Below, piece after piece: positions 1,023-63,999 of a DNA stretch of 64,000 nt. Position 1 is the first letter of the stretch. Every line of letters starts with the position of its first letter. A program made the translations under genes and the position numbers. The stretch comes from an uncultured Candidatus Saccharibacteria bacterium (lineage in GTDB: Bacteria > Patescibacteriota > Minisyncoccia > Phycocordibacterales > CAYSCM01), in NCBI GenBank assembly GCA_964429815.1, contig CAYSCM010000001.1, forward strand, positions 164,240 to 228,239, given 5' to 3'. The notes under the pieces are model-generated. The model did no database searches, was not told the DNA's origin, and saw only the letters and a program-made list of their open reading frames with translations.

Positions 1023-1094
1023 GCCCTCGTCGTTCAATGGATAGGACGCAAGCTTGCGGAGCTTGTAATGTCAGTTCGATTCTGGCCGAGGGCG
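1023..1094 (+). tRNA. tRNA-Arg, anticodon GCG
   Basis: 72-nt cloverleaf folded by hand. Acceptor GCCCTCG/CGAGGGC, D-stem GTTC/GGAC, anticodon stem CAAGC/GCTTG with loop TTGCGGA, T-arm GTCAG-TTCGATT-CTGGC, discriminator G. No encoded CCA. Confidence 0.85.
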
Positions 1095-1095
1095 C

Positions 1096-1252
1096 ACATA
1101 GGGATTTTTGCGCCCGGCCAAAATCGAACGGGAAGGGGTCGGGGAACGGGAGTTCCCCGGGAGGAAAGCAGAGCGAAGCTCGTCGGAAACCATGGGTTTC
1201 TGAAGAGCCACCCTGCGGCGAGTGAGATAGCGAAGCGTCTGGCCGAGGGCGC
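1096..1252 (+). repeat. tRNA-3'-linked structured element, copy A, including a terminal 15-nt direct repeat of the tRNA-Arg 3' end
   Basis: tctggccgagggcgc at 1081-1095 is repeated at 1238-1252. 1110-1129 (gcgcccggccaaaatcgaac) is an inverted copy of tRNA positions 1074-1095. The core (aatcgaacgggaaggggtcggggaacgggagttccccgggagg ... gagtgagatagcgaagcg) is homologous to 63117-63222. Confidence 0.6.
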
Positions 1253-1310
1253 CCATTTCCCAAGCGCCGCTTTTGTGGCATCATCCCGAGAGCTTAGTGA
1301 GGAGAGTTCG

Positions 1311-6010: not shown

Positions 6011-6412
6011 ATGCTCAACCCATTCCCCTACGTTCTCTCCTTCGGTGCATTCGCACCGCTGCTTATTCGACTTTCTGTTTCTCTCTTTCTCATGCTTGCC
6101 GCACGCCACCTCTGGCAAAATCGGCAGCGCGCAGTCGCGGAACTTCTCCCCAAACTAGGCTCGCTCGCGTGGCCAAAATTCTATGGCCTCCTCGGTATAG
6201 AAGTGGCTGCAGCGCTCTCACTTTTTCTCGGATTCTATACGCAAATCGGTGCCATAGCCGGTATGGTTGTCTTTCTGGGACTCCCCTACGCATTGAAGCG
6301 TTTCCCCTCGCTCTCTCCCTGGACCTACGCGCTTCCGCTTCTTCTTGCGCTCCTCTCTCTGACTCTTCTCATAACTGGGGCGGGTATCTACGCCTTCGAC
6401 TATCCGTTTTAA
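6011..6412 (+). CDS. DoxX-like small membrane protein
   Basis: Internal ATG at 6011 of ORF 5807..6412. Four hydrophobic segments. The DoxX-like assignment is weak. Confidence 0.45.
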   Translation: MLNPFPYVLSFGAFAPLLIRLSVSLFLMLAARHLWQNRQRAVAELLPKLGSLAWPKFYGLLGIEVAAALSLFLGFYTQIGAIAGMVVFLGLPYALKRFPSLSPWTYALPLLLALLSLTLLITGAGIYAFDYPF

Positions 6413-21325: not shown

Positions 21326-22426
21326 TTAACGATTCATCGGCATGACGAGATAAAGAAACGATGCATCGCCCACACCTCGTATGACGAGCGGCTTGCCTGG
21401 TCCACCAAAGGTAAGGGTGAGGCTATCAGTGGAGATTGATTGGAGACAGTCGGAAAGGTAGCGATGGTTGAAGTGTATATCGAGTGATTCTCCGGATAAG
21501 GTTGCGGGTATCTGCTCCTCTATTTCACCGATATCCGCATTCCGGGAGCTTAGGGTAAATGCTTTTTTGTTTGGTTTGAGCGAGAAGGATACCTGATTGA
21601 ACTTATCGGAAAATACGACAGCGCGCTTAAGAATGGCCATGAAATCGGCTTTAAGGAGCACAGCCTCAGTGACTCCCTCTTTGGGAATTATTTGTCGATA
21701 GTCCGGGAAGGTGCCGTCGATGAGCCGTGAGGTTATGAACACCCGCTTAAAAGAGAGCGAGAGTTGGTTTTTTGAGAAGGAGATATTCAATTCAGCATCG
21801 GCTTCCTCGAGAATTTTCGCTATCTCAATGGCATTTCGTATGGGAAGTATGAGGGGATCGAAATCGACGCTCTTCTTTTCGGGAACTATTTTCTCCGCAA
21901 GCCTAAATGAATCCGTTGCTGCAAAGATGAGGCTTCCATTATGGTGATAGATATAAATACTGCAAAGCTCGGGTTTGATTGATGATGTTGAAGCGCTGTA
22001 GGCAACGGCTCGTACACCACGAGCGAGTATGTCGGGTTTTATGGAGAGCGACTTTCCGCCGGAAACGTAGGGGAGGTGAGGAAAATCGGCCGCTGCTTGT
22101 CCCTTGATTGTTGTTGTACTGCCTTTGGTTTCCACCTTAAGGTTCCCTTCAACTCCTACTAATCGCACCGGGGTTCCTGATGGTGTGGTATTTACCACTT
22201 GTGAAAGGATGTGTCCTGGTACCGCAACTACTCCTTCGGTCGAAACTTTAGCCGGTACTTCAACCTCTATCCCAAGCTCGAGGTTGGTAGAGCGAATGAG
22301 AAGGTTGTTCTTTCCTGCAACGATACAAAGGCAGGAGAGTACCGGAAGGGTAACGTTGCGCCCCGTTGCTCGTTCTGCGAGACCAATGGCCCTCTGGAGT
22401 TCTTCGCTTCGTACCTCAACCTTCAT
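21326..22426 (-). CDS. dnaN: DNA polymerase III beta sliding clamp
   Basis: 366 aa, three-domain length, directly downstream of dnaA. MKVEVRSEELQRAIGLAERA... Confidence 0.9.
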   Translation of the reverse strand: MKVEVRSEELQRAIGLAERATGRNVTLPVLSCLCIVAGKNNLLIRSTNLELGIEVEVPAKVSTEGVVAVPGHILSQVVNTTPSGTPVRLVGVEGNLKVETKGSTTTIKGQAAADFPHLPYVSGGKSLSIKPDILARGVRAVAYSASTSSIKPELCSIYIYHHNGSLIFAATDSFRLAEKIVPEKKSVDFDPLILPIRNAIEIAKILEEADAELNISFSKNQLSLSFKRVFITSRLIDGTFPDYRQIIPKEGVTEAVLLKADFMAILKRAVVFSDKFNQVSFSLKPNKKAFTLSSRNADIGEIEEQIPATLSGESLDIHFNHRYLSDCLQSISTDSLTLTFGGPGKPLVIRGVGDASFLYLVMPMNR

Positions 22427-22663
22427 ATATATGATTTTTAAATGAATTTAAAGAGATATTTCTATTTACTCTGTGGAAACCGTGAATAGTCATTGTAAGC
22501 TTTTATTTCAAGGGAATTTTTACGTTACTATATTCCTACTATGTGGATAGAATGCGTATTTCTCACTCAATAATCCCCACTCCCCGCTCATTTTATATTT
22601 TCAATCATCTTATGTACGCATAATTGTCGTTGTATCCATCGGCTACCAACGCACTCTCCACAC
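22427..22663. other. candidate oriC (AT-rich unwinding region plus DnaA-box-like 9-mers)
   Basis: AT-rich 22425-22470. TGTGGATAG 22540-48, TGTGGAAAC 22470-78, CTCTCCACA 22652-60, TAATCCCCA about 22569-77. Located in the dnaA-dnaN intergenic region. Confidence 0.55.
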
Positions 22664-24049
22664 TTATTTCAACATTCCCCGTATCTGCTCTATTTCCTGG
22701 GTGAGAGTAGCATCGACCTTGAGATCGTTTTTTATCTTTTCACACGAGTGAATCACGGTCGTATGGTCGCGACCACCAAGCCGTGAGCCTATTGTGGGGA
22801 ATGATACATGAAAATCCTCACGAAGAATGTACATAATGACTTGCCGCGGGCGCACCACCTCCTTTCGGCGCGTTTTTTCATAGATGGACTCTTCAGGGAT
22901 GTCATAAAAATCGGCGATTTTCTTGATAATCTCCTTTGTGGAGACTAATTTTTTTGGTCGCGATGACAATTTAATAAGATTTTTTACCTCAGGGAGCGTC
23001 AAGGTGCGTCCCTTAAGTTGTGACTGCATAACGACGGCGTTGAGCATCCCCTCGAGCTCTCGGATGTTGGCGACGATGGTTCCCGCGAGGTGCTCGAGGA
23101 GCTCATGGTCGAGGAGATAGCCTTGCTGGAGCGATTTTGTCTTGAGAATTGCCATTCTCGACTCGAAATCCGGCTCCGGTATGTCGACAATCATGCCGCC
23201 GGAGAAACGCGACTTAAGGCGGTCGTCGATATGCTGGAGCTCGGAGGGGTGCTTATCCGAGGAAAAGACTATCTGTTTGTTGTTGTCGTGGAGGACATTG
23301 AAGGTGTGGAAGAGCTCATCCATGGAGCGCTCTTTCTGCGAGATGAATTGCACGTCGTCCATGATGAGCACATCGTACTGGCGATACTTTTCCTTAAAGC
23401 CTGTGAAATTCGTGCTCTGCACCGCAGCGAGGTAGTCCATGACGAACCGCTCCGAGGTCACATAGTAAATTTTTTTACCCGAATGAGCTTTTTTTATCTG
23501 GTTCCCTATTGCTTGGATGAGATGAGTTTTACCTCGGCCCGTCGCGCCGTAGATAAAGAGGGGGTTGTAAGCGATCCCGGGCTTTTTGACGACCGCTTGC
23601 GCCGCGGCGAACGCGAGCTCATTAAACGGCCCGACAACGAAGGTGTCGAAGGTATAGCGGGGGTTGAGGTTGTCGCTTTTGTTTATGTAGTACTCGGAGA
23701 GGGGCAGCTCTCCGGTAAGAAGGACATTGGGCCGTGGAGCCTCTTCTTCAGAGCGCGTGCGGCCCCGGCTTATCGTGTATTCAAGCCCGCGGATGTGAGT
23801 ACTGGCGCTCCGGAGCGCCTTGAGTATGAATTTGTGGTACTTTTTTGAAAGCCAATCACGGACGAACTGGTTCGGAACGGCCAAAAACACCACGCCGTCC
23901 TCGATGCGCGCGATCGACGTGTCTTTAAACCACGTCGTGAAGTTCGGTTTTGAGATGGAGAGCTCTATTTCGACGAGGACGTTCTGCCATAGCTCCTTCG
24001 TATCGATTTCCTCTACGACGACGCCAGCATGCGTATCAACCCCATCCAT
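22664..24049 (-). CDS. dnaA: chromosomal replication initiator DnaA
   Basis: AAA+ motifs GATGRGKTHL, LIMDDVQF. C-terminal DNA-binding helix GGRDHTTVIHSCEKI. Confidence 0.95.
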   Translation of the reverse strand: MDGVDTHAGVVVEEIDTKELWQNVLVEIELSISKPNFTTWFKDTSIARIEDGVVFLAVPNQFVRDWLSKKYHKFILKALRSASTHIRGLEYTISRGRTRSEEEAPRPNVLLTGELPLSEYYINKSDNLNPRYTFDTFVVGPFNELAFAAAQAVVKKPGIAYNPLFIYGATGRGKTHLIQAIGNQIKKAHSGKKIYYVTSERFVMDYLAAVQSTNFTGFKEKYRQYDVLIMDDVQFISQKERSMDELFHTFNVLHDNNKQIVFSSDKHPSELQHIDDRLKSRFSGGMIVDIPEPDFESRMAILKTKSLQQGYLLDHELLEHLAGTIVANIRELEGMLNAVVMQSQLKGRTLTLPEVKNLIKLSSRPKKLVSTKEIIKKIADFYDIPEESIYEKTRRKEVVRPRQVIMYILREDFHVSFPTIGSRLGGRDHTTVIHSCEKIKNDLKVDATLTQEIEQIRGMLK

Positions 24050-24143
24050 AGTGGTCCTAGTATCGCACCGCCCCGCGGACCGTCAAACTTGCGTTAAAAC
24101 GGCCGATATGGTACTAACGTGTGTATAACCTGTTGAAAATTTC

Positions 24144-24281
24144 GTGCCGAAACGAACCTATCAACCCAAGAAGCGAAAACGCGCCCGTACCCACGGGTTC
24201 CTTGCTCGTACGCGTTCCCGAAAAGGAGGGAACGTTCTTGCACGCCGCCGCCGGCGCGGCCGGCGGCGTCTCTCTGTTTAG
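24144..24281 (+). CDS. rpmH: 50S ribosomal protein L34
   Basis: Below the ORF-track cutoff. GTG start. Translation (M)[44 protein letters not shown]. Confidence 0.9.
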
Positions 24282-24289
24282 GTTTTTCG

Positions 24290-24625
24290 ATGCTTCGGAA
24301 AAAAAATAGGCTAACCCGCGCCCACTTTGCGGGACTTGCCTCCGGGAGCATTTTCCAGAGACCCTCTATGACCCTTCGTTTACGTACAGGGCAGGGAGAG
24401 AGCCGCTTCGCCGTTGTTGTTTCCTCGGCCGTTTCTAGAAATGCGACGAGTCGCAACTATTTGCGGAGAGTCCTCTACGGTGCGCTACGTTTCCACTGGC
24501 CGAAGCTAAAAAAAGGCCTCAATGGAGCCATATTTTTGAAAAAACACGCTGTGAACCTCCGGCCCAATGAGCTCAAGGAAGAGCTTAAAGATCTCTTGAA
24601 CGTAAGCCGCAGCCTCACTCCGTAG
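24290..24625 (+). CDS. rnpA: RNase P protein component
   Basis: Position after rpmH. Basic 111-aa protein, MLRKKNRLTRAHF... Confidence 0.8.
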   Translation: MLRKKNRLTRAHFAGLASGSIFQRPSMTLRLRTGQGESRFAVVVSSAVSRNATSRNYLRRVLYGALRFHWPKLKKGLNGAIFLKKHAVNLRPNELKEELKDLLNVSRSLTP

Positions 24626-24678
24626 GCTACTTCCTTGGGAAAATTGTGGAATACCCTGAGAGCGGCTAGAATAGCCAA

Positions 24679-25407
24679 ATGTCGGCTCTCTTCCATGCCG
24701 CTCTCTACAACCCGCTTTACAACGGGCTTATTTTTTTGATAGGCGTCATGCCCGCGGGAGATGCGGGGCTCGCCATCATAGCGCTCACCATCATCGTCAA
24801 GCTCATCCTCTTCCCTCTCTCGCTCCGGGCGGCACGCACCCAGATACTCATGCGCTCCCTCGAAGACGAGTTGGCGACTATAAAACAGCGCTATAAAGAC
24901 CGGCGGGAACAGGCGATGAAGACCATGGAGCTCTACCGGCGCGAAAAGGTGAACCCGTTCTCAAGTTTCCTCCTCATCTTGATACAACTCCCTGTCATAT
25001 TCGCGCTCTATTTCGTGTTCGTGCGCGGTGGATTGCCTACCATCCACACCGCCATTCTTTACCCTTTCGTGCATGTACCCGGAAGCGTTGATCTCATCTT
25101 TCTAGGGCTCTTTGATCTTTCGACCCACAGCATTATTCTCGCAGTTCTTGCCGGCCTTTCTCAGTTCATCCAAGCCTCTATCAGCTTCTCGAAAGGTCCG
25201 CATGTGAAAGGCTCTGAAAGAACTGTTGCGCACGCCATGCAGCTCCAGATGAAATACCTCTTCCCCCTTCTCATCGCCTACATCGCCTACCGCTTCTTTG
25301 CCGCAGTTGCACTTTACTGGGTGACGAGTAATATCTTTGCAATCGGCCAGGAACTGTATGTGCGCGCAAAGCTCAAGCAGGTTGTCCGTCCAAACGCCGC
25401 GTCATGA
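24679..25407 (+). CDS. yidC: membrane protein insertase YidC (short form)
   Basis: YNPLYNGLIFL, MELYRREKVNPFSSFLLILIQLPVIFALY, five TM segments, position after rnpA. Confidence 0.9.
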   Translation: MSALFHAALYNPLYNGLIFLIGVMPAGDAGLAIIALTIIVKLILFPLSLRAARTQILMRSLEDELATIKQRYKDRREQAMKTMELYRREKVNPFSSFLLILIQLPVIFALYFVFVRGGLPTIHTAILYPFVHVPGSVDLIFLGLFDLSTHSIILAVLAGLSQFIQASISFSKGPHVKGSERTVAHAMQLQMKYLFPLLIAYIAYRFFAAVALYWVTSNIFAIGQELYVRAKLKQVVRPNAAS

Positions 25408-27200: not shown

Positions 27201-28142
27201 TCAAAATCCTATAGCGCTGCACCTCGGTGCTTCTCCGAATCCCGGACAATATTGCTGGCAATCAGCGAGAGAGGAAAAGGCTACTTTCCCAGTCTCGATT
27301 CCCTTCCCCCAGGTGCAGAGTGTTTCCTGCGGGGCATTAAAAAGACTCTGTGGCTCTTGTGGCGGAGGTGGCAGGTTCGTCGTTTGTGATTGTAAAACGT
27401 CAGCCGACACCGCCGTGCATCTGCCCGAACAGGTTCGCTGGCACTCATCCATTGATGCAACATAGTAGCGTCGTCCTTGATATGAACCGTTATCTTCACG
27501 AAGTTCGCACGCCGCCTGAGAACTTATGCTAGTTGGAATCCCGTTTATAATCGGAGTCTTGTTTGGCTGGGTCGTTATTGTCGTCGGGCTCCCCGTCCCG
27601 GGCGTTGTGGATGGCCCGCCGAGGAGCGAATTATTTTTTACAATCTGCGGATTGATGGTGACGAGGAGTACGTAGGAGAGAAGGATGATAAGAAGGCCGT
27701 ATATCGCGGATTCAATGTAATCACGCCCACCCTCTTTCCCAAACGGCGTACTGCTCAGCATGTACTTGAAACCGCCAAAGGTAATCATAAGAACGGCGAG
27801 AAGCGCTGCGATGCCAAGGCCAAAATCAAAAATAGTATTGAGGACACTACTGAGACTCCCGTTGTTTTTTGTGTAAAGCCCTCCAATATTTTCAAGGGGG
27901 ACGAAACCTTGAGAGCCGGTTACTTGTGTTCCTAAGGGAGTAGTTTGTAAGGGGGAAGCGTCACCACATCCACCGGTTCCTTGTACATCAACGCAGGGTG
28001 TGCCCGATTGCGCTGGTTGAAGTGCAGAAGAACAATTTTCCGTATAGCCTCGAGAACAGGAGTCTCCAGATTCTGCCTTAGAAAAGGCAAACGGCAGCAT
28101 CAAAAGACAGAGAATGGAGATTATTATTTGTGACTTTCTCAT
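27201..28142 (-). CDS. T4SS-pilin-like (TrbC/VirB2-type) protein with a Cys-rich C-terminal extension
   Basis: Signal peptide, then LNTIFDFGLGIAALLAVLMITFGGFKYMLSSTPFGKEGGRDYIESAIYGLLIILLSYVLLVTINP (two-helix pilin core). Followed by about 130 aa with two Cys-containing modules. Confidence 0.6.
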   Translation of the reverse strand: MRKSQIIISILCLLMLPFAFSKAESGDSCSRGYTENCSSALQPAQSGTPCVDVQGTGGCGDASPLQTTPLGTQVTGSQGFVPLENIGGLYTKNNGSLSSVLNTIFDFGLGIAALLAVLMITFGGFKYMLSSTPFGKEGGRDYIESAIYGLLIILLSYVLLVTINPQIVKNNSLLGGPSTTPGTGSPTTITTQPNKTPIINGIPTSISSQAACELREDNGSYQGRRYYVASMDECQRTCSGRCTAVSADVLQSQTTNLPPPPQEPQSLFNAPQETLCTWGKGIETGKVAFSSLADCQQYCPGFGEAPRCSAIGF

Positions 28143-28143
28143 A

Positions 28144-29163
28144 TCATTTACCAAAGTTTATTTGAAGGGCTATCGATGTGGCCTGAAAAATTTGCGAAAC
28201 ATTTTGTAGCGAGAGAGCAAGATTTGCTGTGCCCGATGATGGGGCCGTCTGGCGCAGCACTACATCGGCCGGATTTTTACTCGAGGGAGTCACGCTCTTG
28301 TCATTGAGCGTCCAGGCGTAGGTGAGCGCTCCTCCGCCGCGGGAATCCGTCGAGAAAAAGTACGGGAAGGCGGAGACCGTCGCCTCGCTTTTAGTGAGAT
28401 TGACACTTTCAGGAAGTGCCCGGTCGAAACGAAATCCTAGAAGTGGGTCGTTTTCATAGAGGATGACGAATGGCTCGTCTCCGTTGAACGAGAGGGAACG
28501 AGTTGCTTTGATGGAACCATCCGAACTCGCTACGTCTACCGACACATTGATCCCGCGATAGACGCGGGCGCCGGGGATGGTAACGGACTGAGCGCCGCGC
28601 CCCGAAGAATCCCCCAGCACCTGGCCATTAAGGTGCCACGTGTAGAAAAGGGCCTCAGGCCTGATGCGCGCGCCGTTCTCGTCTACGAAAAACGGCATCG
28701 CAAAGAGGACCATCGTGGCGTCATAGGGAGCGAGAGCTTTACCGCGGTAAAAGGGCGGGGTGTAGACATTCGCTTGCCACAGCAGATCAAGGCCTGCCGG
28801 GCGAACGATGGCTGTTTTGGTAAGGGTCGAGCCATTGGGGAGTGTTGCGTTAACGCGAAGCACATTGATGCTTCCAATACCGCCAACCGTGAAGTGGGCC
28901 GTGACGACACCAACCCCTGAGTCAATGATCTTCCCGTTAAGGCTCCACACCAAGGTGGCGCGGGCAAGGTTTTCTGCGTAACTGGCGACCTGGGCCGATA
29001 CGGCTTGACCCGCTCCGGGTACCTCAGGCGAGAGGGAGAGCGAAAAATCTCCTGGCACGGTGGGCAAATTTAGCTGTGCAAAGAGCGTTGTAGGGAGCGA
29101 AAGGGCCGCGACGAGGAGTGTCGTCGCGCAGAGGCCGCGCATGATTCGGGGGGAAATAGTCAT
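28144..29163 (-). CDS. secreted beta-rich protein of unknown function
   Basis: Signal peptide MRGLCATTLLVAALSLPTTLFA. ATGA coupling with the upstream gene. Confidence 0.5.
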   Translation of the reverse strand: MTISPRIMRGLCATTLLVAALSLPTTLFAQLNLPTVPGDFSLSLSPEVPGAGQAVSAQVASYAENLARATLVWSLNGKIIDSGVGVVTAHFTVGGIGSINVLRVNATLPNGSTLTKTAIVRPAGLDLLWQANVYTPPFYRGKALAPYDATMVLFAMPFFVDENGARIRPEALFYTWHLNGQVLGDSSGRGAQSVTIPGARVYRGINVSVDVASSDGSIKATRSLSFNGDEPFVILYENDPLLGFRFDRALPESVNLTKSEATVSAFPYFFSTDSRGGGALTYAWTLNDKSVTPSSKNPADVVLRQTAPSSGTANLALSLQNVSQIFQATSIALQINFGK

Positions 29164-29777
29164 CAGGCTGCCTTCACTTTGGCTTGAGATTTATTATATT
29201 CCCTATCCTCCTGGTGAACGAGGCGGATTTCCGACCACACGCACATCGTCCATATAGGTATTGCATTTAACCCAGGCGCTAATTTAACCGCGATGAGAAT
29301 CAAATCTCGGATCGGGCGTTTTAGTGTCAAAAAGTTATGACCAGAAGTAGCAAACCATCCAATGAAAATAAAGAAAATCACGATCGACAAAACCGTGTTG
29401 ATGATGAGTCCAATGATGAGAAAGGTGAGAACAAGTTGGATAAGATCGAAAAACATCGCCACTCCCATCATGGCCGCATACTGAAGTCCTCCGATGCGGT
29501 GACGTTTTTTTGCGGGTACGGAAACGCGTTGGGCCGTCGCCACTTGAGCGGGCTCCCGTGGTGAAACCCGCGTATATCCCGATGGCTGCCGTTGCCAAAA
29601 CGCACGCTCTTGCGGGTCGAGTTCCTTACTCCCCATGCTCACCTTCGGGTTCCCGCCTATGCGAATGCCTCGCTTTACTCCTTCGGCTCGTAAGGCTTCG
29701 TATTCCTGTCGAGTCATGGAGGGATCCGCTCCAGCCGGAGGGGTCCACTTTTTTGATTGCGGGTCACGCGGAGGCAT
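29163..29777 (-). CDS. membrane protein (cytosolic N-terminal region, three C-terminal TM helices)
   Basis: Hydrophobic segments GLQYAAMMGVAMFFDLIQLVLTFLIIGLIINTVLSIVIFFIFIGWF. Confidence 0.5.
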   Translation of the reverse strand: MPPRDPQSKKWTPPAGADPSMTRQEYEALRAEGVKRGIRIGGNPKVSMGSKELDPQERAFWQRQPSGYTRVSPREPAQVATAQRVSVPAKKRHRIGGLQYAAMMGVAMFFDLIQLVLTFLIIGLIINTVLSIVIFFIFIGWFATSGHNFLTLKRPIRDLILIAVKLAPGLNAIPIWTMCVWSEIRLVHQEDREYNKSQAKVKAA

Positions 29778-29779
29778 GA

Positions 29780-31612
29780 CTATTTATTCGCCTCGGCCTC
29801 GAGCTCCTGGCGGGCCTTTTTAATAGCGAGAATTTGGCTCGGATCGGAGGTGATGATTTGATCTTCGGTATAAGAGGCGATGATTTTGATGGCGACGTGT
29901 TTGAGGCCGGCAAAGAATATCCCCTCTCCCACGTCCGATTCCAGGAGCAGGTACTTTTCCTCGTCGGTGAGGTTAAACGTTTTCTGCACGTTGTCGATGG
30001 AGGTTGGCGATTGCTTCAGCAGCAGCTGAATGGAGGAGTTGGTTATCATAGGGAGCCCGTAGGGAGAGTTCAAGAAATCAGAAACGTCTTGCGTGATGGT
30101 GGCAAGACCCAGGAAGTATTTGCGCCCGCGTTTGGCGACCGAAAAGAGGAAACTCGCCGTATCCTCGCTCTGCATCATCCAGTGCGCTTCATCGACGATA
30201 AAGAGGCGTTTCTTGAGCTCCTTGCGCACTGCGGTCCAGATGAAGTGCGTGACGATGTACATGGCGACGGGCTTGAGCTCATCCTCCATGTCGCGCACGG
30301 AGAATACGACAAAATTTTTGTTGATATCGACATTGGTCGGGCGATTGATGAAACCTGCCCACGTACCCTTGGTGTACTTGGAGAGGCGCTGCACGAGCGA
30401 CTCGGAGCCTTCCATTCCGGCGAGCACGAGCTCGAAGTCGGAGAGGAGCGGCGGCTCGATGCTGGTGAAGTCGCTCTCCCCCGTTATGTCCTTGAGCGCA
30501 TAGGTTTCCGTGATAGCCCGGTCGATGATGGAGTCTTCCTCCGGCGTTAGGCCGCCGAGCATGATGCGGAACAGGCCCACGAGATTCACGATGTTGCTTC
30601 GAAGCACGTCGCCGGGAGCTTCGTCTTCCCGCGGGGTCGGCAGGTCGAAGGGGTTGATGTGGTGCTCGGAGGTGAGGGATATGTTGAAGTAGCGCCCACC
30701 GACGGCGTCCGCCATGTACTCGTACTCACGCTCAGGGTCGATGACAATGACCTCGGTGCCGAACATAAGGGAGCGCAAAATTTCGAGCTTTACCGCGTAG
30801 GATTTGCCGGCGCCGGATTTTGCGAACGTCACCGAGTTGTAGTTTTCGAGGCTAAAGCGATCAAAGAGGATGAGGGAGCTGTTGTGGCGGTTGATGCCGT
30901 AGAGAATTCCCTTGTCGGAAGTGAGATCGAAGGAGACAAAGGGAAAGAGCGAGGAGAGCGGCGAGGAGTTGAGCTTCGTGTGCACGGAGAGCTCATCGGA
31001 GGCTATGGGAAGTACGGAGCGGAACCCCTGCTCCTGCTGAAAGAGCGCGGGCTTCACGTAGATGAGGCGGCTCTCGAGCATGGTCTTTATCTCGCTCTCC
31101 ACCTTGTCGAGCTCTTCCTGCGAGTTGCCATAGATAGAAATGTAAAGCCCGACATCGAAGAGTTTCTCTTGCGCCTGCTGGAGCTGGTCGCGGAGCGATT
31201 CAAGGTCACGATAGGCGGTGTCGAGCATTGGATCGCGCACGAGCCCGCGCTCCTCTCGGGTCGTGATCTGACTTTGCACCTCCGCGACCTTTTTTTGGAA
31301 TTTCCGAAGCACTGTAGCGGTGTCCGCCGGATGCACGAATATGGATACGTCGAAGACCCGATCGAGATTTATGATGGGAGCAAACCAGGAATCCGCGAGG
31401 TAGCGTGGGTAGGAAATAACAAATAGCGTGCGCACCAGCTTGTCGCCGAGATTCATCTCCCGCGGGGTGATCTTGAGCGCTGAAGGGGCGATGATGTCGT
31501 GGAACTCAAGCGCTCCCGCTTCATAGATTTCCTGCGGCAAAATGGGAGTGACCGGGACTTCCCTCCTCTTTTTCCCGCCCAAGCCTCCTGTGAGAAAATC
31601 AAGTAGAGCCAT
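29780..31612 (-). CDS. virB4: VirB4/TraC-family type IV secretion ATPase (C-terminal ATPase portion)
   Basis: Walker A FAKSGAGKSY, Walker B RLFIVDEAHWMM, ATITQDVSDF. Confidence 0.85.
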   Translation of the reverse strand: MALLDFLTGGLGGKKRREVPVTPILPQEIYEAGALEFHDIIAPSALKITPREMNLGDKLVRTLFVISYPRYLADSWFAPIINLDRVFDVSIFVHPADTATVLRKFQKKVAEVQSQITTREERGLVRDPMLDTAYRDLESLRDQLQQAQEKLFDVGLYISIYGNSQEELDKVESEIKTMLESRLIYVKPALFQQEQGFRSVLPIASDELSVHTKLNSSPLSSLFPFVSFDLTSDKGILYGINRHNSSLILFDRFSLENYNSVTFAKSGAGKSYAVKLEILRSLMFGTEVIVIDPEREYEYMADAVGGRYFNISLTSEHHINPFDLPTPREDEAPGDVLRSNIVNLVGLFRIMLGGLTPEEDSIIDRAITETYALKDITGESDFTSIEPPLLSDFELVLAGMEGSESLVQRLSKYTKGTWAGFINRPTNVDINKNFVVFSVRDMEDELKPVAMYIVTHFIWTAVRKELKKRLFIVDEAHWMMQSEDTASFLFSVAKRGRKYFLGLATITQDVSDFLNSPYGLPMITNSSIQLLLKQSPTSIDNVQKTFNLTDEEKYLLLESDVGEGIFFAGLKHVAIKIIASYTEDQIITSDPSQILAIKKARQELEAEANK

Positions 31613-50220: not shown

Positions 50221-50748
50221 CTAGAGCCGCTCTACGTCGCGAAACTCTTCCTTTCGAGTTTCAAGCTCTTCCGGGGTTTGTTCACCATAACCTTTGATCT
50301 CAAGAAGTCCTTCTGCCACGAGATTGATTGAGGCGGGCAATTTTGACTGAACAAATTCATATACCTGCGGACGTAGTGTATCGATAATTTCTCGTCGCAC
50401 CGAAAGGGGAATGGTCGCCAGGAGGCCTTTTTTGCTGAATGCCCGCATTGGCGGATCGCAGGCAAACACTATGTCGACGTCGCTTTCCTCACTCATTTCC
50501 TTCCCAAAAGCATTTCCGCCAACGACATAGAGAGCTGTCTCCTTGGTGGTGACGCCAGCTGCGGCCTCAGCGATGGTTTTAAAAAGTTCTACTACCTCTG
50601 TGCGCTGCTCAGTCAGTACGGTAAGTACAGCTTCGAGAGTCTTTTTTCGTTCCGAAATTTTTGTTGGATCGGAATCGGCCACAGCTTCTCGAGCTTGCAT
50701 TCTTTCGATAAGCGACGGAGAGGGTTTTTGTGGAAAAGATTCTTTCAT
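50221..50748 (-). CDS. putative minimal nucleotidyltransferase-fold protein
   Basis: LYVVGGNAFGKEMSEESDVDIVF resembles the G-x-S...D-x-D NTase signature. Confidence 0.4.
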   Translation of the reverse strand: MKESFPQKPSPSLIERMQAREAVADSDPTKISERKKTLEAVLTVLTEQRTEVVELFKTIAEAAAGVTTKETALYVVGGNAFGKEMSEESDVDIVFACDPPMRAFSKKGLLATIPLSVRREIIDTLRPQVYEFVQSKLPASINLVAEGLLEIKGYGEQTPEELETRKEEFRDVERL

Positions 50749-52289
50749 TGGATGTTTTGTTTAGGGCGGTACCGCAGTGCTTCAAGCACGTGCACATCGG
50801 CAACCTCATCAGCGCCCTCGACATCCGCGATCGTGCGGGCGATTTTTATGACACGGTGGTAGGCGCGAGGTGAAAGATCCAGCTTTTGTGCCGATTCATT
50901 GAGAAGTCCTCGGACATTCGGCGCAAGTTCGGCGAATTCCTCTAGATCTTTCACGCCCATGTCGCTGTTTTTCGAAATAGCCCTGCCCGCAAAACGCTCA
51001 CGCTGACGCTCTCGAGCTTCCGCGACGATCCTCTGCGCTCGCGTCGTTTCGCCCTCGGAGCCGCGCTTTCCCGAAAGTTTTTCGTGGTCGATATGAGGCA
51101 CCTCTATCCAGAGGTCAACGCGATCGATGATGGGGCCGGAAATTTTTCTGCGATAGCGCGAGAGCGCGACTGGCGTGCACAGGCAGGGCTTCCCTGAGCC
51201 GAAATTGCCGCACGGGCAGGGATTCATCGCGGCGATAAGAGTGAAGTTCGCCGGAAAACGGGCGGAGCCTTTCGCGCGGGAGATGGAAACGACACGGTCT
51301 TCGAGCGGCTGGCGCAGGGCGTCGATGACGCGCCGGTCGAATTCGGGAAACTCGTCCATGAAAAGCACGCCGCGATGGGCGAGCGTTATCTCGCCGGGTT
51401 TAGGGAACGCGCCGCCGCCCACAAGCGACACGTAGGAGGCGGTGTGATGGGGCGAGCGAAGCGGTGGCATCGTGAGAGGTTCTCCGGATAGCGTACCGGC
51501 AACCGAGTGAATGCCGGTCACCTCGAGCACTTCCGCCGAGGAGAGCGGCGGCAGGAGGCTGACGAACGCTTTGGCGAGCATGGATTTGCCGGTCCCCGGC
51601 GGACCGTAGAGGACGACATTGTGCCCGCCCGCAGCTGCAATGATGAGCGCGCGCTTGCCGCTTTCCTGTCCGCGAATGTCTTCAAGGGCGACGAGCGGTT
51701 CTTCATTCTTCACGTCGATCGGAGTCAGTGGAGCTGGTTGTATGCGAAATGTGCTCACGTTCCCGGATCTTTCCCCCGTAAGATGTTCGATGAGTTTACC
51801 GAGGGTTTCAAGAGGGTATACTGAAATGCCTTCGATGAGAGCGGCTTCCTCGACGTTCTCTCGAGGAACATAGAGCTCCTTGATTCCCCCCTCGCGCGCA
51901 GCACGCGCCGCGGAGAGGATTCCAGTAATTTTACGTATCGAGCCGTCAAGACCAAGCTCACCCAAAAACAGCTTTCCCGTCGGATCGAACGTTATCTCGT
52001 CAGCCGCGAGGAGATAAGAAAGTGCGATCGGTACGTCAAACGCGGGCCCCTCTTTTTTGAGATCGGCCGGTGCGAGGGATATCGTTATCTTATGGTTTTT
52101 TGATTTTGGGGAGACGAACCCCGAATTTTTTATCGCCGCCGAAACGCGGTCCCGCGACTCCTCAACGGCTTTATCCGGGAGGCCGACGATAGTGAACGAG
52201 TGGAGACCGCGCGCGATGTCAGCTTCGACCGAGAGCAGACACGCGCCCAGAAGTTGTGGCTGGGCACTCCCGACTTTTGCGAACGACAT
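50745..52289 (-). CDS. comM: Mg-chelatase-like AAA+ protein YifB/ComM
   Basis: Lon-protease-like N-terminal domain. GPPGTGKSMLA, VLFMDEFPEF. Internal ATG at 52289. Confidence 0.85.
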   Translation of the reverse strand: MSFAKVGSAQPQLLGACLLSVEADIARGLHSFTIVGLPDKAVEESRDRVSAAIKNSGFVSPKSKNHKITISLAPADLKKEGPAFDVPIALSYLLAADEITFDPTGKLFLGELGLDGSIRKITGILSAARAAREGGIKELYVPRENVEEAALIEGISVYPLETLGKLIEHLTGERSGNVSTFRIQPAPLTPIDVKNEEPLVALEDIRGQESGKRALIIAAAGGHNVVLYGPPGTGKSMLAKAFVSLLPPLSSAEVLEVTGIHSVAGTLSGEPLTMPPLRSPHHTASYVSLVGGGAFPKPGEITLAHRGVLFMDEFPEFDRRVIDALRQPLEDRVVSISRAKGSARFPANFTLIAAMNPCPCGNFGSGKPCLCTPVALSRYRRKISGPIIDRVDLWIEVPHIDHEKLSGKRGSEGETTRAQRIVAEARERQRERFAGRAISKNSDMGVKDLEEFAELAPNVRGLLNESAQKLDLSPRAYHRVIKIARTIADVEGADEVADVHVLEALRYRPKQNIQ

Positions 52290-52294
52290 GGAAA

Positions 52295-52666
52295 TCAGGC
52301 GTTCATGTGCTTTATGCACGTTTGCGCCGCCGGGTCGGCATCGAGGCGCTTCTCTTCGATGGGCTCTCCGGATATTTTGCAGATGCCGTAGGTACTCTGC
52401 TCAATGCGAGCGAGTGCGTCTTTTACCTCGTTGTAGCGCGTCTCGAGCTCCTTGAGAATGGCGGAATTTTCTTCGTAGCCCTCGATGCGGTCCGCCGCTT
52501 CGTTGGTATCGGCTTCGACGTCCTCCGCGAGCGGGGCGGTCGCCTCCCAGTCGGCCGGATTCTGAGGATTCTTTCGCCCGACGCCCCGGAGCTCCTCTTC
52601 GAGCTCAGTGAGCTCTTCCTCGAGACGGCTTTTGTATTTTTTCACGTCGATCATGTGCGCCATCAT
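52295..52666 (-). CDS. DksA/TraR-family zinc-finger-like protein
   Basis: Coiled-coil N-terminus. C-terminal YGICKISGEPIEEKRLDADPAAQTC (partly degenerate C4 finger). Confidence 0.6.
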   Translation of the reverse strand: MMAHMIDVKKYKSRLEEELTELEEELRGVGRKNPQNPADWEATAPLAEDVEADTNEAADRIEGYEENSAILKELETRYNEVKDALARIEQSTYGICKISGEPIEEKRLDADPAAQTCIKHMNA

Positions 52667-57981: not shown

Positions 57982-58893
57982 ATGGCCGACCTTGAGACGC
58001 TCAAACGCCAGTTCCTCGAACACCTTGAGATAGAAAAGGGCCGCTCGCTCAAGACGATCGAAAATTACGATCGCTACCTCTCGCGCTTCCTCGATTTCAC
58101 CAAAACGAAATCCCCCAAAAGCATCTCGGACGATTCGGTGCGAGAATTCCGGCTTTGGCTCAACCGCCAGCCAGGCGGCGGCAACGAGACGCTCAAGCGC
58201 AAGACGCAAAACTACTACCTCATCGCGCTTCGCGCGTTCCTCAAGTACTTGCGCAAGCGCGGCATTGAGTCCATCTCCCCGGAGCGCATCGAGCTTGCCA
58301 AAGTATCGCAGCGGGAACTCGATCTCATTTCAGGAAGCGAACTCGAGCGTTTGATGAAAGCACCGGAAGAGAACACTCTCTCTTCCCTTCGCGATCGCGC
58401 CATCCTTGAGCTTCTTTTTTCGACCGGATTGCGGGTGTCAGAGCTCACCTCGCTCAATGCCGACATCGACTTGGGGAGCGACGAGCTTTCCGTGCGCGGC
58501 AAGGGCGAAAAAATACGCGTGGTGTTTCTCTCCCCCTCAGCCAAAGATGCCCTGAAAAAGTACCTCGCGAAACGAAAGGACATGGACGAAGCGCTCTTCG
58601 TGCAGATGGGAAAAAACGCTAAAGGAGTGAGTGAACTTCGCCTCACCCCGCGCTCCGTCGAGCGGCTCGTGAAACGCTACGCGATAAAGGCCGGCATCAC
58701 GCGCAAGGTGACCCCGCATGTCATCCGTCACTCCTTCGCCACCGACCTTCTTCATAATGGCGCGGACCTTCGAAGTGTGCAGGCGATGCTCGGGCACGCC
58801 AACATCGCGACGACGCAGGTCTACACACATGTTACCGACAAGCACCTACGAGACATTCACAAACATTTTCACGGGCGTAAGCGTCGCTCCTAA
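57982..58893 (+). CDS. tyrosine recombinase, XerC/XerD family
   Basis: N-terminal SAM-like domain. Catalytic region RHSFATDLLHNGADLRSVQAMLGHANIATTQVYTHV. Confidence 0.9.
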   Translation: MADLETLKRQFLEHLEIEKGRSLKTIENYDRYLSRFLDFTKTKSPKSISDDSVREFRLWLNRQPGGGNETLKRKTQNYYLIALRAFLKYLRKRGIESISPERIELAKVSQRELDLISGSELERLMKAPEENTLSSLRDRAILELLFSTGLRVSELTSLNADIDLGSDELSVRGKGEKIRVVFLSPSAKDALKKYLAKRKDMDEALFVQMGKNAKGVSELRLTPRSVERLVKRYAIKAGITRKVTPHVIRHSFATDLLHNGADLRSVQAMLGHANIATTQVYTHVTDKHLRDIHKHFHGRKRRS

Positions 58894-62739: not shown

Positions 62740-62811
62740 GCCCCCGTGGTGAAATGGATATCACAACTGGCTTCGGACCAGTTATTGTGGGTTCGAGTCC
62801 TGCCGGGGGCG
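62740..62811 (+). tRNA. tRNA-Arg, anticodon TCG
   Basis: 72-nt cloverleaf. GCCCCCG/CGGGGGC, GTGA/TCAC, ACTGG-CTTCGGA-CCAGT, T-arm GTGGG-TTCGAGT-CCTGC, discriminator G. Confidence 0.85.
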
Positions 62812-63014
62812 CAAACGGCACAAAACGCGGTGCATTTTGCGCGTTTGCGCCAGGCGGAGCGATGTTTTGCGAGTACACAAAACCGTGAGCCGAGGCCGCG
62901 AAAATTCTGAGCGACGACGAAAAACTATTTTTGTGACCGCCTCGGCGTCGGGTGACAGATTCTAGATTGAGAAAGCACTGACGCGTGCTATAGTTTCCCC
63001 GAAGTATAAAGCAG

Positions 63015-63085
63015 GCGGCCATAGTTTAGTGGTAGGACGGATCCTTGCCAAGGATCAGGTGGGAGTTCGATTCTCCCTGGCCGCA
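63015..63085 (+). tRNA. tRNA-Gly, anticodon GCC
   Basis: 71-nt cloverleaf. GCGGCCA/TGGCCGC, GATCC-TTGCCAA-GGATC, T-arm GGGAG-TTCGATT-CTCCC, discriminator A. Upstream TTGAGA-16nt-TATAGT promoter-like site. Confidence 0.9.
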
Positions 63086-63088
63086 CAA

Positions 63089-63239
63089 AAGGACACTTCC
63101 CTACGGGGTCAGGGAGAATCGAACGGGAAGGGGTCGGGAAACGGCAGTTTCCCGCGGAGGCGGAGGAAGGCAGGCAAAGCCTCTGGAAAACCTGGGTTTC
63201 CAGAGAGTGAGATAGCGGGGCGTCTCCCTGGCCGCACAA
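63089..63239 (+). repeat. tRNA-3'-linked structured element, copy B, including a terminal 17-nt direct repeat of the tRNA-Gly 3' end
   Basis: tctccctggccgcacaa at 63072-63088 is repeated at 63223-63239. 63110-63124 (cagggagaatcgaac) is the exact reverse complement of tRNA positions 63065-63079. The core is homologous to 1122-1237. Confidence 0.6.
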
Positions 63240-63373
63240 TACGTAATAAACTTTTCTTACATGGCCTGTCTCATAGAAAACTCATAATTTGAGCGTTTCT
63301 GTGGATAAATCTGTGAGTATGTGTATTAAGGACAGTCCTATAACCAAAGAATGGCTTTAAATCCGTAAAAGTT

Positions 63374-63416
63374 TCACGTGAAAATTAGTTACACGTGAAA
63401 ATGTTACATGTGAAAT
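63374..63416 (+). promoter_or_regulatory. three tandem CACGTG-type repeats upstream of yraN
   Basis: tcacgtgaaaat (63374-85), acacgtgaaaat (63391-402), acatgtgaaat (63406-16). Confidence 0.35.
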
Positions 63417-63427
63417 GGCAATCCACA

Positions 63428-63865: not shown

Positions 63866-63926
63866 GGGGCGTGGTGTAACGGCTAACATACCCGCGTGGG
63901 GAGCGGTTTTCCTTCGAGTTCTTCGT
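63866..63926 (+). pseudogene. decayed tRNA-Pro(GGG)-like fragment (intact 5' two thirds, no valid T-arm or acceptor 3' strand)
   Basis: 63866-63895 is identical to 63928-63957 of tRNA-Pro. The anticodon loop reads GTGGGGA. The downstream ttttccttcgagttcttcgtc cannot form a T-arm or acceptor stem. Confidence 0.6.
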
Positions 63927-63999
63927 CGGGGCGTGGTGTAACGGCTAACATACCCGCTTTGGGAGCGGGCGACTCCCGGTTCGAATCCGGGCGCCCCGA
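63927..63999 (+). tRNA. tRNA-Pro, anticodon TGG
   Basis: 73-nt cloverleaf. CGGGGCG/CGCCCCG (C1-G72), CCCGC-TTTGGGA-GCGGG, T-arm CCCGG-TTCGAAT-CCGGG, discriminator A. Ends one base before the window edge. Confidence 0.9.

Follow-up and report, generated by a model that had tools for sequence, protein, structure and literature searches.

Integrative elements with tyrosine integrases insert at the 3' ends of tRNA and tmRNA genes, with a sublocation in the T loop. The module described here, studied mainly at its copy behind a tRNA-Gly gene (copy B), resembles them in a repeat that starts in the T loop and continues to the 3' end, in the use of tmRNA, in the stacking of copies at one gene and in leaving that gene functional. 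It has the flanking direct repeats of such elements; however, it is only 120-200 nt long and has no integrase, and no recombinase with one att site was found for it. The gene-proximal repeat belongs to the native sequence, with the insertion placed after the trailer; every module has an inverted copy of its target, and one scaffold occurs at dozens of targets, including protein genes. The attP of CTXphi (XerCD) and the integron attC are folded single-stranded sites in which a hairpin stem imitates the target duplex; if a single strand were exchanged, the resulting order would be target copy, loop, inverted copy, element and target copy. These sites need dif or attI as their one fixed target and have known recombinases, whereas the stem of the module varies by target, the targets show no likeness to dif, and the comparison with empty sites does not put the junction within the repeat.

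MITEs, REPINs and Correia-type repeats are, like the module, small, non-coding, multicopy, hairpin-forming and non-autonomous. The arms of the module, in contrast, copy the end of the neighbour gene and differ from target to target instead of forming family-wide terminal repeats; a target duplication of fixed length is missing, no related transposase turned up, and the inner fold shows covariation. The bridge RNA of IS110 and the OMEGA RNAs of IscB/TnpB combine a scaffold with a contiguous, copy-specific segment complementary to the target. The module has the same layout (a resemblance of design only); however, it has no adjoining recombinase or nuclease gene and no Rfam match, its arms are long and paired, and it carries a copy of the target. 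Homing cassettes with a spare gene end, such as SXT at prfC and the free-standing homing-endonuclease cassettes in organelle genes, also sit at a conserved gene end and leave a second, xenologous terminus, and their copies likewise differ mostly synonymously; whereas they encode an integrase or endonuclease, the module encodes nothing. The group I introns that Patescibacteria carry in their tRNA genes lie in the anticodon loop, exceed 200 nt, are self-splicing and match Rfam (PMC13011429). They share with the module the hosts and genes, a highly conserved target and a gene left functional; the module, however, lies outside the tRNA, is smaller and lacks the group I core. No Intron_gpI match was obtained at the tRNA-Gly and its module, and the tRNA is uninterrupted. 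Module and group I intron are both present at two other loci (L094 and L214).

Copy B lies in the window, i.e. the whole 64-kb stretch of DNA that was analysed, in which modules are found at three of the five tRNA loci. The complete tRNA-Gly(GCC) gene occupies 63015-63086 of the plus strand (anticodon by ARAGORN; 67.9 bits against the RF00005 cutoff of 29 in Rfam), and its 3' end is copied by the module. Upstream of it, a putative sigma-70-like promoter (TTGAGA, 16 nt, TG-n-TATAGT; 62967-62994, plus strand) was matched by consensus, and the stretch from the tRNA to the module has no predicted terminator; copy B is probably co-transcribed with tRNA-Gly. The native copied segment X (63065-63088, plus strand) comprises the T loop, the 3' strands of the T stem and acceptor stem, and CAA. 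It contains the first 17-nt direct repeat, tctccctggccgcacaa, at 63072-63088. The spacer (63089-63106, plus strand) is the native tRNA trailer, homologous to the trailer at an empty orthologous site (L299). The inverted copy X' (63107-63124, plus strand) forms the left end of an insertion of about 160 nt. Its stretch cagggagaatcgaac (63110-63124) is the exact complement of 63065-63079, and the helix reaches 18 bp, with one G.U pair, between 63107-63124 and 63065-63082.

The family-A scaffold of copy B follows at 63125-63222 (plus strand). It is composed of the strand J1 (GGGAAGGGGTC), hairpin P2 (63135-63154, loop GGCA), the strand J2, which contains GGAGGAAGG, hairpin P4 (63181-63205) and a 3' block made of GAGTGAGAT and AGCGGGGCG (63205-63222). 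The second direct repeat, again tctccctggccgcacaa, is carried within the insertion at 63223-63239 (plus strand). Next comes a 27-nt tail (63240-63266, plus strand) without counterpart at the empty site, and the native trailer starts again at TGTCTCATAG (63267). The first bases of the second direct repeats are imperfect.

Copy A of the module (1110-1256, plus strand) lies behind tRNA-Arg(GCG) (1023-1095, plus strand). It contains X' (1110-1129) and the scaffold (1130-1237) with hairpin P2 (1140-1159), a small hairpin (1171-1181), hairpin P4 (1183-1203) and the 3' block (1220-1237). Its direct repeats are 19 nt long (1081-1099 and 1238-1256), and their one mismatch lies 2 nt past the discriminator base, not at the discriminator. 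The 3' block GAGTGAGATAGCGRRGCG matches exactly at 1220-1237 and 63205-63222, and the window contains the 21-mer ATCGAACGGGAAGGGGTCGGG twice, while none of 100 shuffles has it. Pairwise alignment of the two copies showed indels of 4, 5 and 14 nt. In hairpin 1 (P2) a G:C pair of copy A is replaced by A:T in copy B; hairpin 2 (P4) adds two more double changes, and copy A has a G.T pair in it; for copy B, a stem of 9 bp with a loop of 7 nt is the better description of this hairpin. The first-pass annotation, made from the window alone, had described the 17-nt direct repeat, the complement of the Gly T-arm, the compensatory changes in both hairpins with the G.T pair, the conserved 3' block and the frame-breaking indels; these were recovered, and the inverted helix is even longer than it had drawn. 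In its division into tRNA-specific repeats and a shared core, GAAC was counted with the core; as the complement of the T loop, it belongs to the target-specific inverted copy instead. A supposed third copy behind tRNA-Lys was rejected, as the match with three mismatches at 6348-6365 is coding sequence without a core.

The third module of the window belongs to a different family (family B; 62813-62990, plus strand), with another core (AGGCGGAGC...GTGACC), and lies behind tRNA-Arg(TCG) (62740-62812). It begins with an inverted copy (CGTTTGCGCC) of the 3' end and trailer of that tRNA. Its ortholog is present in one relative (L299) and missing from another (L302), and between the window and L299 the inverted copy follows the acceptor-stem changes of its own tRNA.

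Covariation strongly supports the two hairpins. In a covariance-model alignment of 108 distinct homologues, which was built from a hand-given structure and is fitted to the very structure under test, 98.3% of the cells are paired, both-sided changes occur in 13 of the 16 pairs, and 234 cells carry such changes. None of 500 shuffles reached any of the covariation measures of the two hairpins. In 95 cores, P4 takes the form of 48 distinct stems, and the outer P4 pairs average 3.08 against 0.89 after permutation, a value reached by none of 1000 permutations. RNAalifold missed P4 on a MAFFT alignment because the loop lengths differ. Inside the stems G.U pairs outnumber A.C by 10 to 2, which indicates that the plus strand folds; the first-pass annotation had suggested this strand, and the covariation that it had seen in two copies is borne out by the larger alignment. 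Orthologous copies also retain the hairpins through fully compensatory changes. The module is thus a conserved nucleic-acid fold under selection, not a protein. In minimum-free-energy folds X' is able to pair with either copy of X, and the 5' acceptor strand is paired with the downstream repeat. A G-quadruplex was considered for GGGAAGGGGTCGGGAAACGGG, which fits the G4 motif, and was rejected since diverged copies without G tracts still have P2. In some subtypes only, an apparent pseudoknot between J2 and the P4 loop (TGCGG/CCGCA) is seen, which competes with the P4 stem.

The module family is widespread. Two scans gave at least 118 and at least 120 loci; both were built on the invariant word AAGGGGTCGGG, so that the conservation of J1 is partly ascertainment. 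In addition, 156 cores were found by nhmmer and 112 by the covariance model. The true copies listed come from CPR MAGs, from MAGs labelled just 'bacterium', or from eight MAGs labelled Bdellovibrionales (a label only), and the metagenome loci carry no taxon label; as far as sampled, the family is confined to Patescibacteria. Among these bacteria, the Saccharibacteria have natural competence (PMC10633639). Genomes may hold several non-coding copies, for example two in the 64-kb window, three each in the MAGs CAYIII01 and CAYYYM01, and up to three on a short contig among the loci listed. The family is also undescribed: a literature search by sequence words and keywords found no description of it.

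The order of parts is the gene end, spacer, inverted copy, scaffold and direct copy, sometimes with a short tail. The inverted copy repeats the last 15-70 nt of the adjacent gene, and the scaffold consists of the two hairpins linked by purine-rich strands; the conserved fold of 60-100 nt is common to CPR phyla. More than 45 different targets were found overall. They include tRNAs of at least 36 anticodon classes, tmRNA and more than 10 protein genes, among them those for Hsp70 (dnaK), L7/L12 (rplL), L11 (rplK), EF-G (fusA) and L21, as well as a TypA/LepA-like GTPase, an HMA P-type ATPase, GT4, GH57 and a PBP. With an unbiased pattern, about one third of the copies adjoin protein-gene ends or tmRNA. 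At 3'-end targets the module lies downstream with its plus strand in sense; at 5'-end targets it lies upstream with its plus strand antisense. The direct repeats measure 8-36 nt in 44 tRNA-linked copies and 8 to about 70 nt across targets. A stretch of 10-23 nt complementary to the target meets the scaffold at a fixed junction at dozens of unrelated targets, and the median duplex energy is -26.1 kcal/mol for the inverted copy with the first direct repeat, -19.1 with the second and -11.4 for non-cognate pairs. At least three additional core families show the same anatomy, i.e. at least four unrelated cores in total, and modules form tandem piles at one site at three loci (L016, L066 and L109). 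In many copies a terminator hairpin separates the module from its gene. In 31 of 138 copies an AT-rich peak with -10-like hexamers lies 27-42 nt upstream of the scaffold. This is suggestive of an own promoter upstream of X'; the peak may also represent mere terminator T-runs.

Sites without the module were located through protein synteny, and four syntenic relatives lack the core. Alignment with the empty site showed an insertion of about 160 nt (63107-63266) behind 19-20 nt of native trailer, with the tRNA-Gly intact and no duplication at the junctions so defined; a search of metagenomes for the exact empty-site pattern gave no match. Insertion polymorphism was seen only between genomes with about 70-78% identity of their CCA enzymes, and the insertion is therefore old. 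The contigs of the same strain are identical to the window and thus reveal no polymorphism, and neither an intermediate nor a recent transposition event was seen among the loci compared. The gene-end copies differ mainly synonymously, with 21 synonymous against 8 non-synonymous codon changes. Copies of one genome have subtype features in common. Both findings, together with the arms of L031 described below, speak for a horizontal history. The downstream repeat gathers mismatches, and at one locus (L034) it is split by the insertion of a 20-nt palindrome. On a fold-back origin of X' the evidence points both ways: four young copies (L078, L114, L213 and L272) are near-perfect palindromes centred in the trailer, which speaks for it, whereas at L031 both arms match each other and mismatch the adjacent tRNA, so that the arms moved together, which speaks against it.

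No enzyme gene is linked to the module. No ORF recurs in the 3 kb around about 140 copies, and transposase, reverse transcriptase, HUH and TnpB domains are absent from the 49 scanned ORFs of the 59 called in the window. The only recombinase gene of its kind in the window is a housekeeping-type XerC/D-like gene at 57982-58893. None of the 238 loci listed holds a full-length element with the same scaffold beside an integrase. Viral contigs gave no 18-mer match, and the 57 matches of a 15-mer were rejected as chance, since none is followed by hairpin P2. Long-insert candidates for an autonomous relative were also rejected: the contig of L078 is broken off and its amidase-like ORF was judged by eye only, others are truncated (L094), and at L288 two ordinary copies lie 2.6 kb from each other. 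Against Rfam 15, the module matched no family in the window at the gathering score; the 291-nt region gave only spurious mraW matches (E 1.3-5.4) at E values up to 10, and the modules at 14 further loci had no match.

With moderate confidence, we favour a non-autonomous module that spreads horizontally, is directed to a gene end through base pairing, and has a fold selected in place. On the plus strand X' would pair either with X or with the original end of the gene, and the stem thus formed, a duplex version of that end, would close the scaffold; since the module lies beside the gene and not within it, the gene stays whole. The anatomy suggests that pairing or homology of the arms with a highly conserved gene end may address the module. 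It is probably mobile, and would spread horizontally between genomes at the same gene and occasionally be re-addressed to a new one. Because the fold is kept by selection in place, the module would act as a folded single strand, most likely a plus-strand transcript; transcription is plausible given the candidate promoter and the lack of a predicted terminator. Long retention and compensatory change in streamlined genomes agree with a host function no less well than with a selfish element. A broader idea, which we hold tentatively and regard as possible rather than probable, is that enzyme-less modules with at least four unrelated cores are addressed purely by complementarity, and that trans-acting or host machinery writes or uses the inverted and direct copies of a gene end or transcript end, thereby placing a structured RNA or ssDNA beside any conserved gene.

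Mechanical ORFs of 56-87 aa span copy B on both strands and might suggest a protein-coding region, or else the similarity of the copies could be due to chance. Both are refuted: the lengths of 42 copies are spread evenly over the three remainders modulo 3 (14/17/11) and the homologues keep no common reading frame, as the first-pass annotation had supposed in dismissing these ORFs; about 40% of the copies have stops in all three plus frames; and the indels between copies A and B, a conservation that follows the pairing and the 21-mer absent from 100 shuffles agree with this. It is also very improbable that the modules are scars of integrase elements, i.e. attL/attR repeats of the tRNA 3' end with the interior deleted. 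The repeat from the T loop to the gene end, the tmRNA target and tandem accretion are classical for such elements, and the window does contain the XerC/D-like gene; however, the interior is a conserved covarying fold and not random remnants, every module bears an inverted copy of its own target, more than 10 protein genes are targeted, no integrase recurs beside the copies, and viral contigs gave no true copy. Moreover, both the spacer and the tRNA-proximal repeat are native sequence, which means that no crossover took place in the T loop. The first-pass annotation had linked the module to tRNAs as such, either as an RNA for tRNA processing (RNase P, RNase Z, CCA addition) or as an intron-like insertion in the T loop with spliced alternatives. 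Most copies found with the first pattern do follow tRNAs, the repeat starts in the T loop, and the 5' acceptor strand pairs with the downstream repeat in the predicted fold; but that pattern contained GAAC, the complement of the T loop, and was thus biased towards tRNAs. The protein-gene and tmRNA targets, and a plus strand that is antisense at 5'-end targets, mean that tRNA maturation cannot be the general function. The splicing variant fails because the tRNA is whole, the insertion lies about 20 nt behind it and the downstream repeat is decayed or split, and relatives manage without the module. As a general explanation the tRNA-processing view is already contradicted, and we give it hardly any credence.

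Two readings take the fold as an RNA with partners of its own. In one, the module is a domesticated cis- or trans-acting regulator, a masked antisense to the end of the neighbour transcript (X' at 3'-end targets, X at 5'-end targets); the X':X stem would keep this segment masked until the scaffold frees it, and the module would tune maturation or translation of core genes. The compensatory maintenance of orthologous hairpins, the family B inverted copy that tracks its own tRNA, the pairing of X' with either copy, the excess of G.U on the plus strand and the probable co-transcription of copy B are consistent with this. We nevertheless consider it quite improbable, since many copies have a terminator hairpin between gene and module, nothing points to a ligand or signal, and the arrival at new genes with matching arms is left unaccounted for. 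The structure covaries as in cis-regulatory RNAs, but orientation and position relative to the transcript are not fixed. In the other reading, which is unlikely though less so, the module is a guide-plus-scaffold RNA (or a folded ssDNA) for a trans-encoded, RNA-guided recombinase or nuclease, with X' as a programmable guide, the scaffold as the protein handle and X as a mask or as a second guide for the opposite strand. The fixed junction between target-complementary segment and scaffold argues for it, as do two arms that complement the two strands of one target and the tandem stacking at one site; an RNA started at the -10-like hexamers would carry about 12-18 nt of guide at its 5' end, although the AT-rich peak may be plain terminator T-runs. 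Against it, no candidate effector lies near any locus or in the window, Rfam gives no match, a nuclease would self-target the perfect target that persists beside the module, and at least four unrelated cores suit one arm-writing mechanism better than four handles.

Under the favoured reading, a horizontally spreading module addressed by pairing, there is horizontal traffic at the most conserved genes, namely tRNAs, tmRNA and the genes for EF-G, DnaK and ribosomal proteins. The family would add a widespread class of structured non-coding elements to a huge and poorly understood bacterial radiation, and it accounts for spurious ORFs and apparent duplications of tRNA 3' ends in CPR annotation. 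If addressing works by base pairing, the system would be programmable and of biotechnological interest. If the broader idea of enzyme-less modules addressed purely by complementarity is true, they would represent a so far undescribed type of programmable system for insertion or antisense action. Should the fold be a regulator, it would form a new control layer over core genes of genome-reduced bacteria. A sharp question is raised by the module, namely what writes target-matched arms without a linked enzyme. The copied segment begins in the T loop and has its exact limit at the ATG or the end of the tRNA, which hints that the arms may be copied from transcript ends.

All parts of the two module copies described in the first-pass annotation were found in the window on the + strand. 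The tRNA-Gly(GCC) gene is located at 63015-63086 (ARAGORN; Rfam 67.9 bits), and copy B behind it includes a 17-nt direct repeat (63072-88 and 63223-39), an inverted repeat (63110-24), hairpin 1 (P2, 63135-54), hairpin 2 (P4, 63181-205) and a 3' block (63205-22). With one G.U pair included, the helix formed by the inverted repeat is 18 bp long (63107-24 against 63065-82). Copy A has the same parts at 1110-1256, behind tRNA-Arg(GCG) at 1023-1095. A 21-mer common to the two copies occurs twice in the window and in none of 100 shuffles, and pairwise alignment places indels of 4, 5 and 14 nt between them. The folding of the whole copy regions is far above that of shuffles (z = -4.4 and -4.0). Copy B is probably co-transcribed with tRNA-Gly, because a putative promoter lies at 62967-94 and no terminator is predicted. 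Since a further module follows tRNA-Arg(TCG), three of the five tRNA genes in the window are occupied.

The closest homologues of the CCA-adding enzyme and RuvA of the window are named Kaiserbacteria, Parcubacteria, Paceibacterota or Minisyncoccia. In four relatives (CCA enzyme 68-78% identical), the genes for the CCA enzyme, tRNA-Arg(TCG), tRNA-Gly(GCC) and tRNA-Pro are neighbours as in the window, and the UPF0102 gene is at the same locus in three of them; the core of copies A and B (family A) is absent from all four syntenic relatives. Alignment with the homologous locus L299 revealed an insertion of about 160 nt in the window (63107-63266), located 19-20 nt behind tRNA-Gly within the loop of a small trailer hairpin. 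The window spacer AAGGACACTTCCCTACG is homologous to the native trailer of L299, and therefore both this spacer and repeat 1 belong to the native sequence. The inserted part consists of the inverted arm (X'), the scaffold, the direct arm (X) and a tail of 27 nt, and it never interrupted the tRNA. A T-loop intron, with unspliced and spliced alternatives, is ruled out by this position behind an intact tRNA and by the native repeat 1; a crossover in the T loop is ruled out by the native repeat and spacer.

The family-A scaffold starts with (G)GGAA(A)GGGGTC, and two of its hairpins are constant, P2 (CGGGAAAC-GGNA-GTTTCCCG) and P4 (...AAACC-loop-GGTTT...), with optional hairpins at two positions. 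P2 and P4 form about 1,560 Watson-Crick pairs in 95 distinct cores, among which 48 different P4 stems occur; the internal non-canonical pairs under symmetric scoring are 10 G.U, 2 A.C and 2 others. The variable outer four P4 pairs gave a mean of 3.08 consecutive pairs against 0.89 after permutation, and none of 1000 permutations reached the observed value. A covariance model was built from a hand-given structure and 112 matches were aligned. In this alignment, which was fitted to the tested structure (J1, the strand between X' and P2, was also part of both search words), 98.3% of the cells pair, 234 cells have two-sided changes at 13 of the 16 pairs, and 0 of 500 shuffles reached any measure of pairing or covariation. 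Slid controls gave 30-63% pairing only. This is the test of covariation on a larger alignment that had been proposed for the two copies. The element lengths modulo 3 are 14/17/11, all three + frames contain stops in many copies, and no conserved protein was found across the copies. These results support the earlier claim of an RNA-level structure instead of a protein: the hairpins covary, no frame is conserved, and the scaffold fold is under selection on the + strand. No matching family was found in Rfam.

The first search used the exact pattern GAACGGGAAGGGGTCGGG with one genome per species and gave at least 118 loci. About 57 of the matches listed are real copies, and the rest of those listed are chance matches in GC-rich genomes. 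The hosts of these real copies are Patescibacteria MAGs (Moran-, Parcu-, Berkel-, Uhr-, Yonath-, Harrison-, Lipton- and Falkowbacteria, Saccharibacteria and Paceibacterota), MAGs named only 'bacterium', or eight MAGs labelled 'uncultured Bdellovibrionales'. Nearly all listed real copies lie 15-70 nt behind a tRNA; the direct repeat in most of them runs from the T loop to the tRNA end plus 0-10 nt, and each inverted copy covers its own tRNA from the T loop through the 3' T-stem strand and, for a variable length, into the acceptor strand. This pattern was biased to tRNA targets because GAAC is the T-loop complement. A second, GAAC-free pattern (AAGGGGTCGGGRAAN{4,9}TTYCCCG) was searched in metagenomes and gave at least 120 loci, and a subsequent nhmmer search gave 156 cores among the matches listed. 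Of these, 105 follow tRNAs (36 anticodon classes), one follows tmRNA (L294), and many others lie at protein-gene ends with identical anatomy. The original label of a tRNA-linked element is therefore too narrow, and the finding holds, on a much larger scale than could be seen from the window.

The protein targets were confirmed with Pfam. They include the 5' ends of genes for Hsp70/DnaK, ribosomal L11, EF-G, a TypA/LepA-like GTPase, an HMA P-type ATPase, a GT4 glycosyltransferase and a GH57 enzyme, and the 3' ends of genes for L7/L12, L21 and a PBP transpeptidase. The insertion points are in highly conserved motifs, such as AH(V/I)D(H/A)GKT, DLGTTNS, GMHCxxC and the T loop. With the element in + orientation, the first repeat always has the gene body to its left, which makes the + strand sense at 3'-end targets and antisense at 5'-end targets. 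The clear likeness of the two gene-end copies stops at the ATG plus 0-3 nt in 7/7 5'-end cases, and at the stop codon in rplL.

The arm X' directly abuts the scaffold. Its duplex with the gene's own end is the strongest (median -26.1 kcal/mol); that with the start of the second copy is good (-19.1 kcal/mol), and those with second copies of other modules are poor (-11.4 kcal/mol). The second copy is systematically inexact over its first 5-9 nt, for example GTGAGAT for GTTCGAT, or CGAC followed by shifted bases. The young copies L078, L114, L213 and L272 have near-perfect palindromes centred in the trailer. The stops at the ATG or tRNA end, the T-loop start and these palindromes fit copying from transcript ends, but no reverse transcriptase was seen. 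In 138 copies, an AT-rich peak (0.63-0.75) was observed just upstream of X', 24-42 nt upstream of AAGGGG, with -10-like hexamers in 31 of the 138; these could represent an own promoter or terminator T-runs.

The same anatomy also surrounds unrelated cores. Family B (AGGCGGAGC...GGGGTCGC...GTGACC) occurs in the window at 62813-62990 on the + strand behind tRNA-Arg(TCG), and in L102, L068, L282, L112, L180 and L016. The window module opens with an inverted copy of the tRNA 3' end and trailer; it is orthologous in L299 and absent in L302. Family C is defined by the 3' module TTATGCCCCGNAGGGGTA in L066 and L067; both element regions have a third tRNA-end repeat, and L067 is a chimera with a family-A 5' half. 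Family D (CCCGTGCGAG...CGCATGGGG) is located at 358-520 of L303, at the tRNA-Arg(GCG) of a relative, which is the orthologue of the copy-A site; its layout is repeat, spacer, split inverted copy, core, repeat and then terminator. Other repeats were observed nearby. A 20-nt palindrome CCTGCCTGCCGGCAGGCAGG inside or beside modules (L005, L034, L055, L003) looks like a separate tiny palindromic insertion and splits the second repeat in L034. Another repeat family (..CCCCGCCTTCGCGAGGACAAGCTTCACGGGAATGAC..) occurs in contigs that carry modules (L288, 3000-3062 and 6243-6305; L245), and in L288 a larger inverted repeat of 45 nt holds one family-A copy in its loop.

Several features bear on the history of the modules. 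The copies of protein-gene ends differ by 21 synonymous versus 8 non-synonymous codon changes (18 versus 3 without the EF-G case); one copy therefore evolved in a working gene of another lineage, and is of xenologous origin. In L031 the arms agree mutually (a CCCAC-type tRNA-Ser end with CCA) and disagree with the adjacent tRNA-Ser(GCT), and both arms travel together. Copies in the same genome have common subtype features (A and B of the window, two of L043, two of L253), which reflects spread within genomes, and modules are stacked in tandem in L016, L066 and L109. Orthologous copies showed long-term retention with fully compensatory hairpin changes, for example an optional family-A hairpin in four Moranbacteria, and GTTTTG/CAAAAC versus ATCCTGC/GCAGGAT in family B of the window and L299. 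In this family-B pair, the acceptor-stem difference of the tRNA is matched in its inverted copy as well.

The module is an insertion beside a gene end. One of its arms copies that end in inverted and the other in direct orientation, its targets are many, and it has no linked enzyme. It seems somewhat probable that it is a non-autonomous module, whose arms would pair with, or be homologous to, a conserved gene end and so address it there. The natural competence of Saccharibacteria (PMC10633639) makes plausible its proposed spread from genome to genome at one and the same gene; it would occasionally be re-addressed to another gene, and would act in folded, single-stranded form. Masked antisense regulation of the neighbour's transcript end is quite improbable. 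A guide-plus-scaffold for a trans-acting enzyme is unlikely. Like the guide RNAs of mobile elements, the module joins a variable complementary stretch to a scaffold. No recurrent ORF was found within 3 kb of about 140 listed copies, only housekeeping genes and a small GIY-YIG ORF. Such nuclease-like ORFs lie within 1.5 kb of modules at four loci (including L070), too few for a link to the family. Among the 49 of 59 called window ORFs scanned with Pfam, a XerC/D-type recombinase was found, and no transposase, reverse transcriptase, HUH or TnpB domains. Viral contigs contained no true module copy.

The module also resembles other known systems: tRNA-targeting integrative elements (direct repeat, tmRNA target, stacking), folded single-stranded recombination sites (a stem imitating the target), MITEs/REPINs (small, many copies, hairpin-forming) and homing cassettes (a spare gene end carried). 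Each known family that could be tested has one or more defining features that the module lacks. It is also different from the group I introns recently described in tRNA genes of Patescibacteria (PMC13011429). By eye, tRNA genes in L094 and L214 apparently contain such introns beside modules (compare PMC13011429); the two types of insertion thus share tRNA clusters. The literature searched contained no description of the module, and its mechanism and function merit experiments.

Some other features of the window were observed. The 5' part of tRNA-Pro(TGG) occurs as a 30-nt direct repeat (63866-63895 and 63928-63957); the upstream copy, with the anticodon GGG, stops after the anticodon arm. It may have arisen as a 5'-end-type duplication or be what is left of a tRNA-Pro(GGG) gene. 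In the identical contig L298, tRNA-Pro is followed by nothing. A probable replication origin region (21326-24680) is marked by dnaN and dnaA on the - strand and then by yidC and a KH/R3H gene on the + strand. The window genes of this origin-proximal chromosome part include dnaA, dnaN, polA, ruvABC, PNPase and a type-IV-secretion-like cluster (27201-31612), and a comM-like gene lies at 50745-52319. Ahead of the UPF0102 gene, non-coding sequence at 63300-63420 is conserved and is also present in L299, L301 and L302; it has the motif order TGTGGATAAAnCTGTG...ATTAAAGGACA...GTCC...TTTCACGTGAAA with repeated TTTCACGTGAAA-like words, and is possibly an operator or promoter region.
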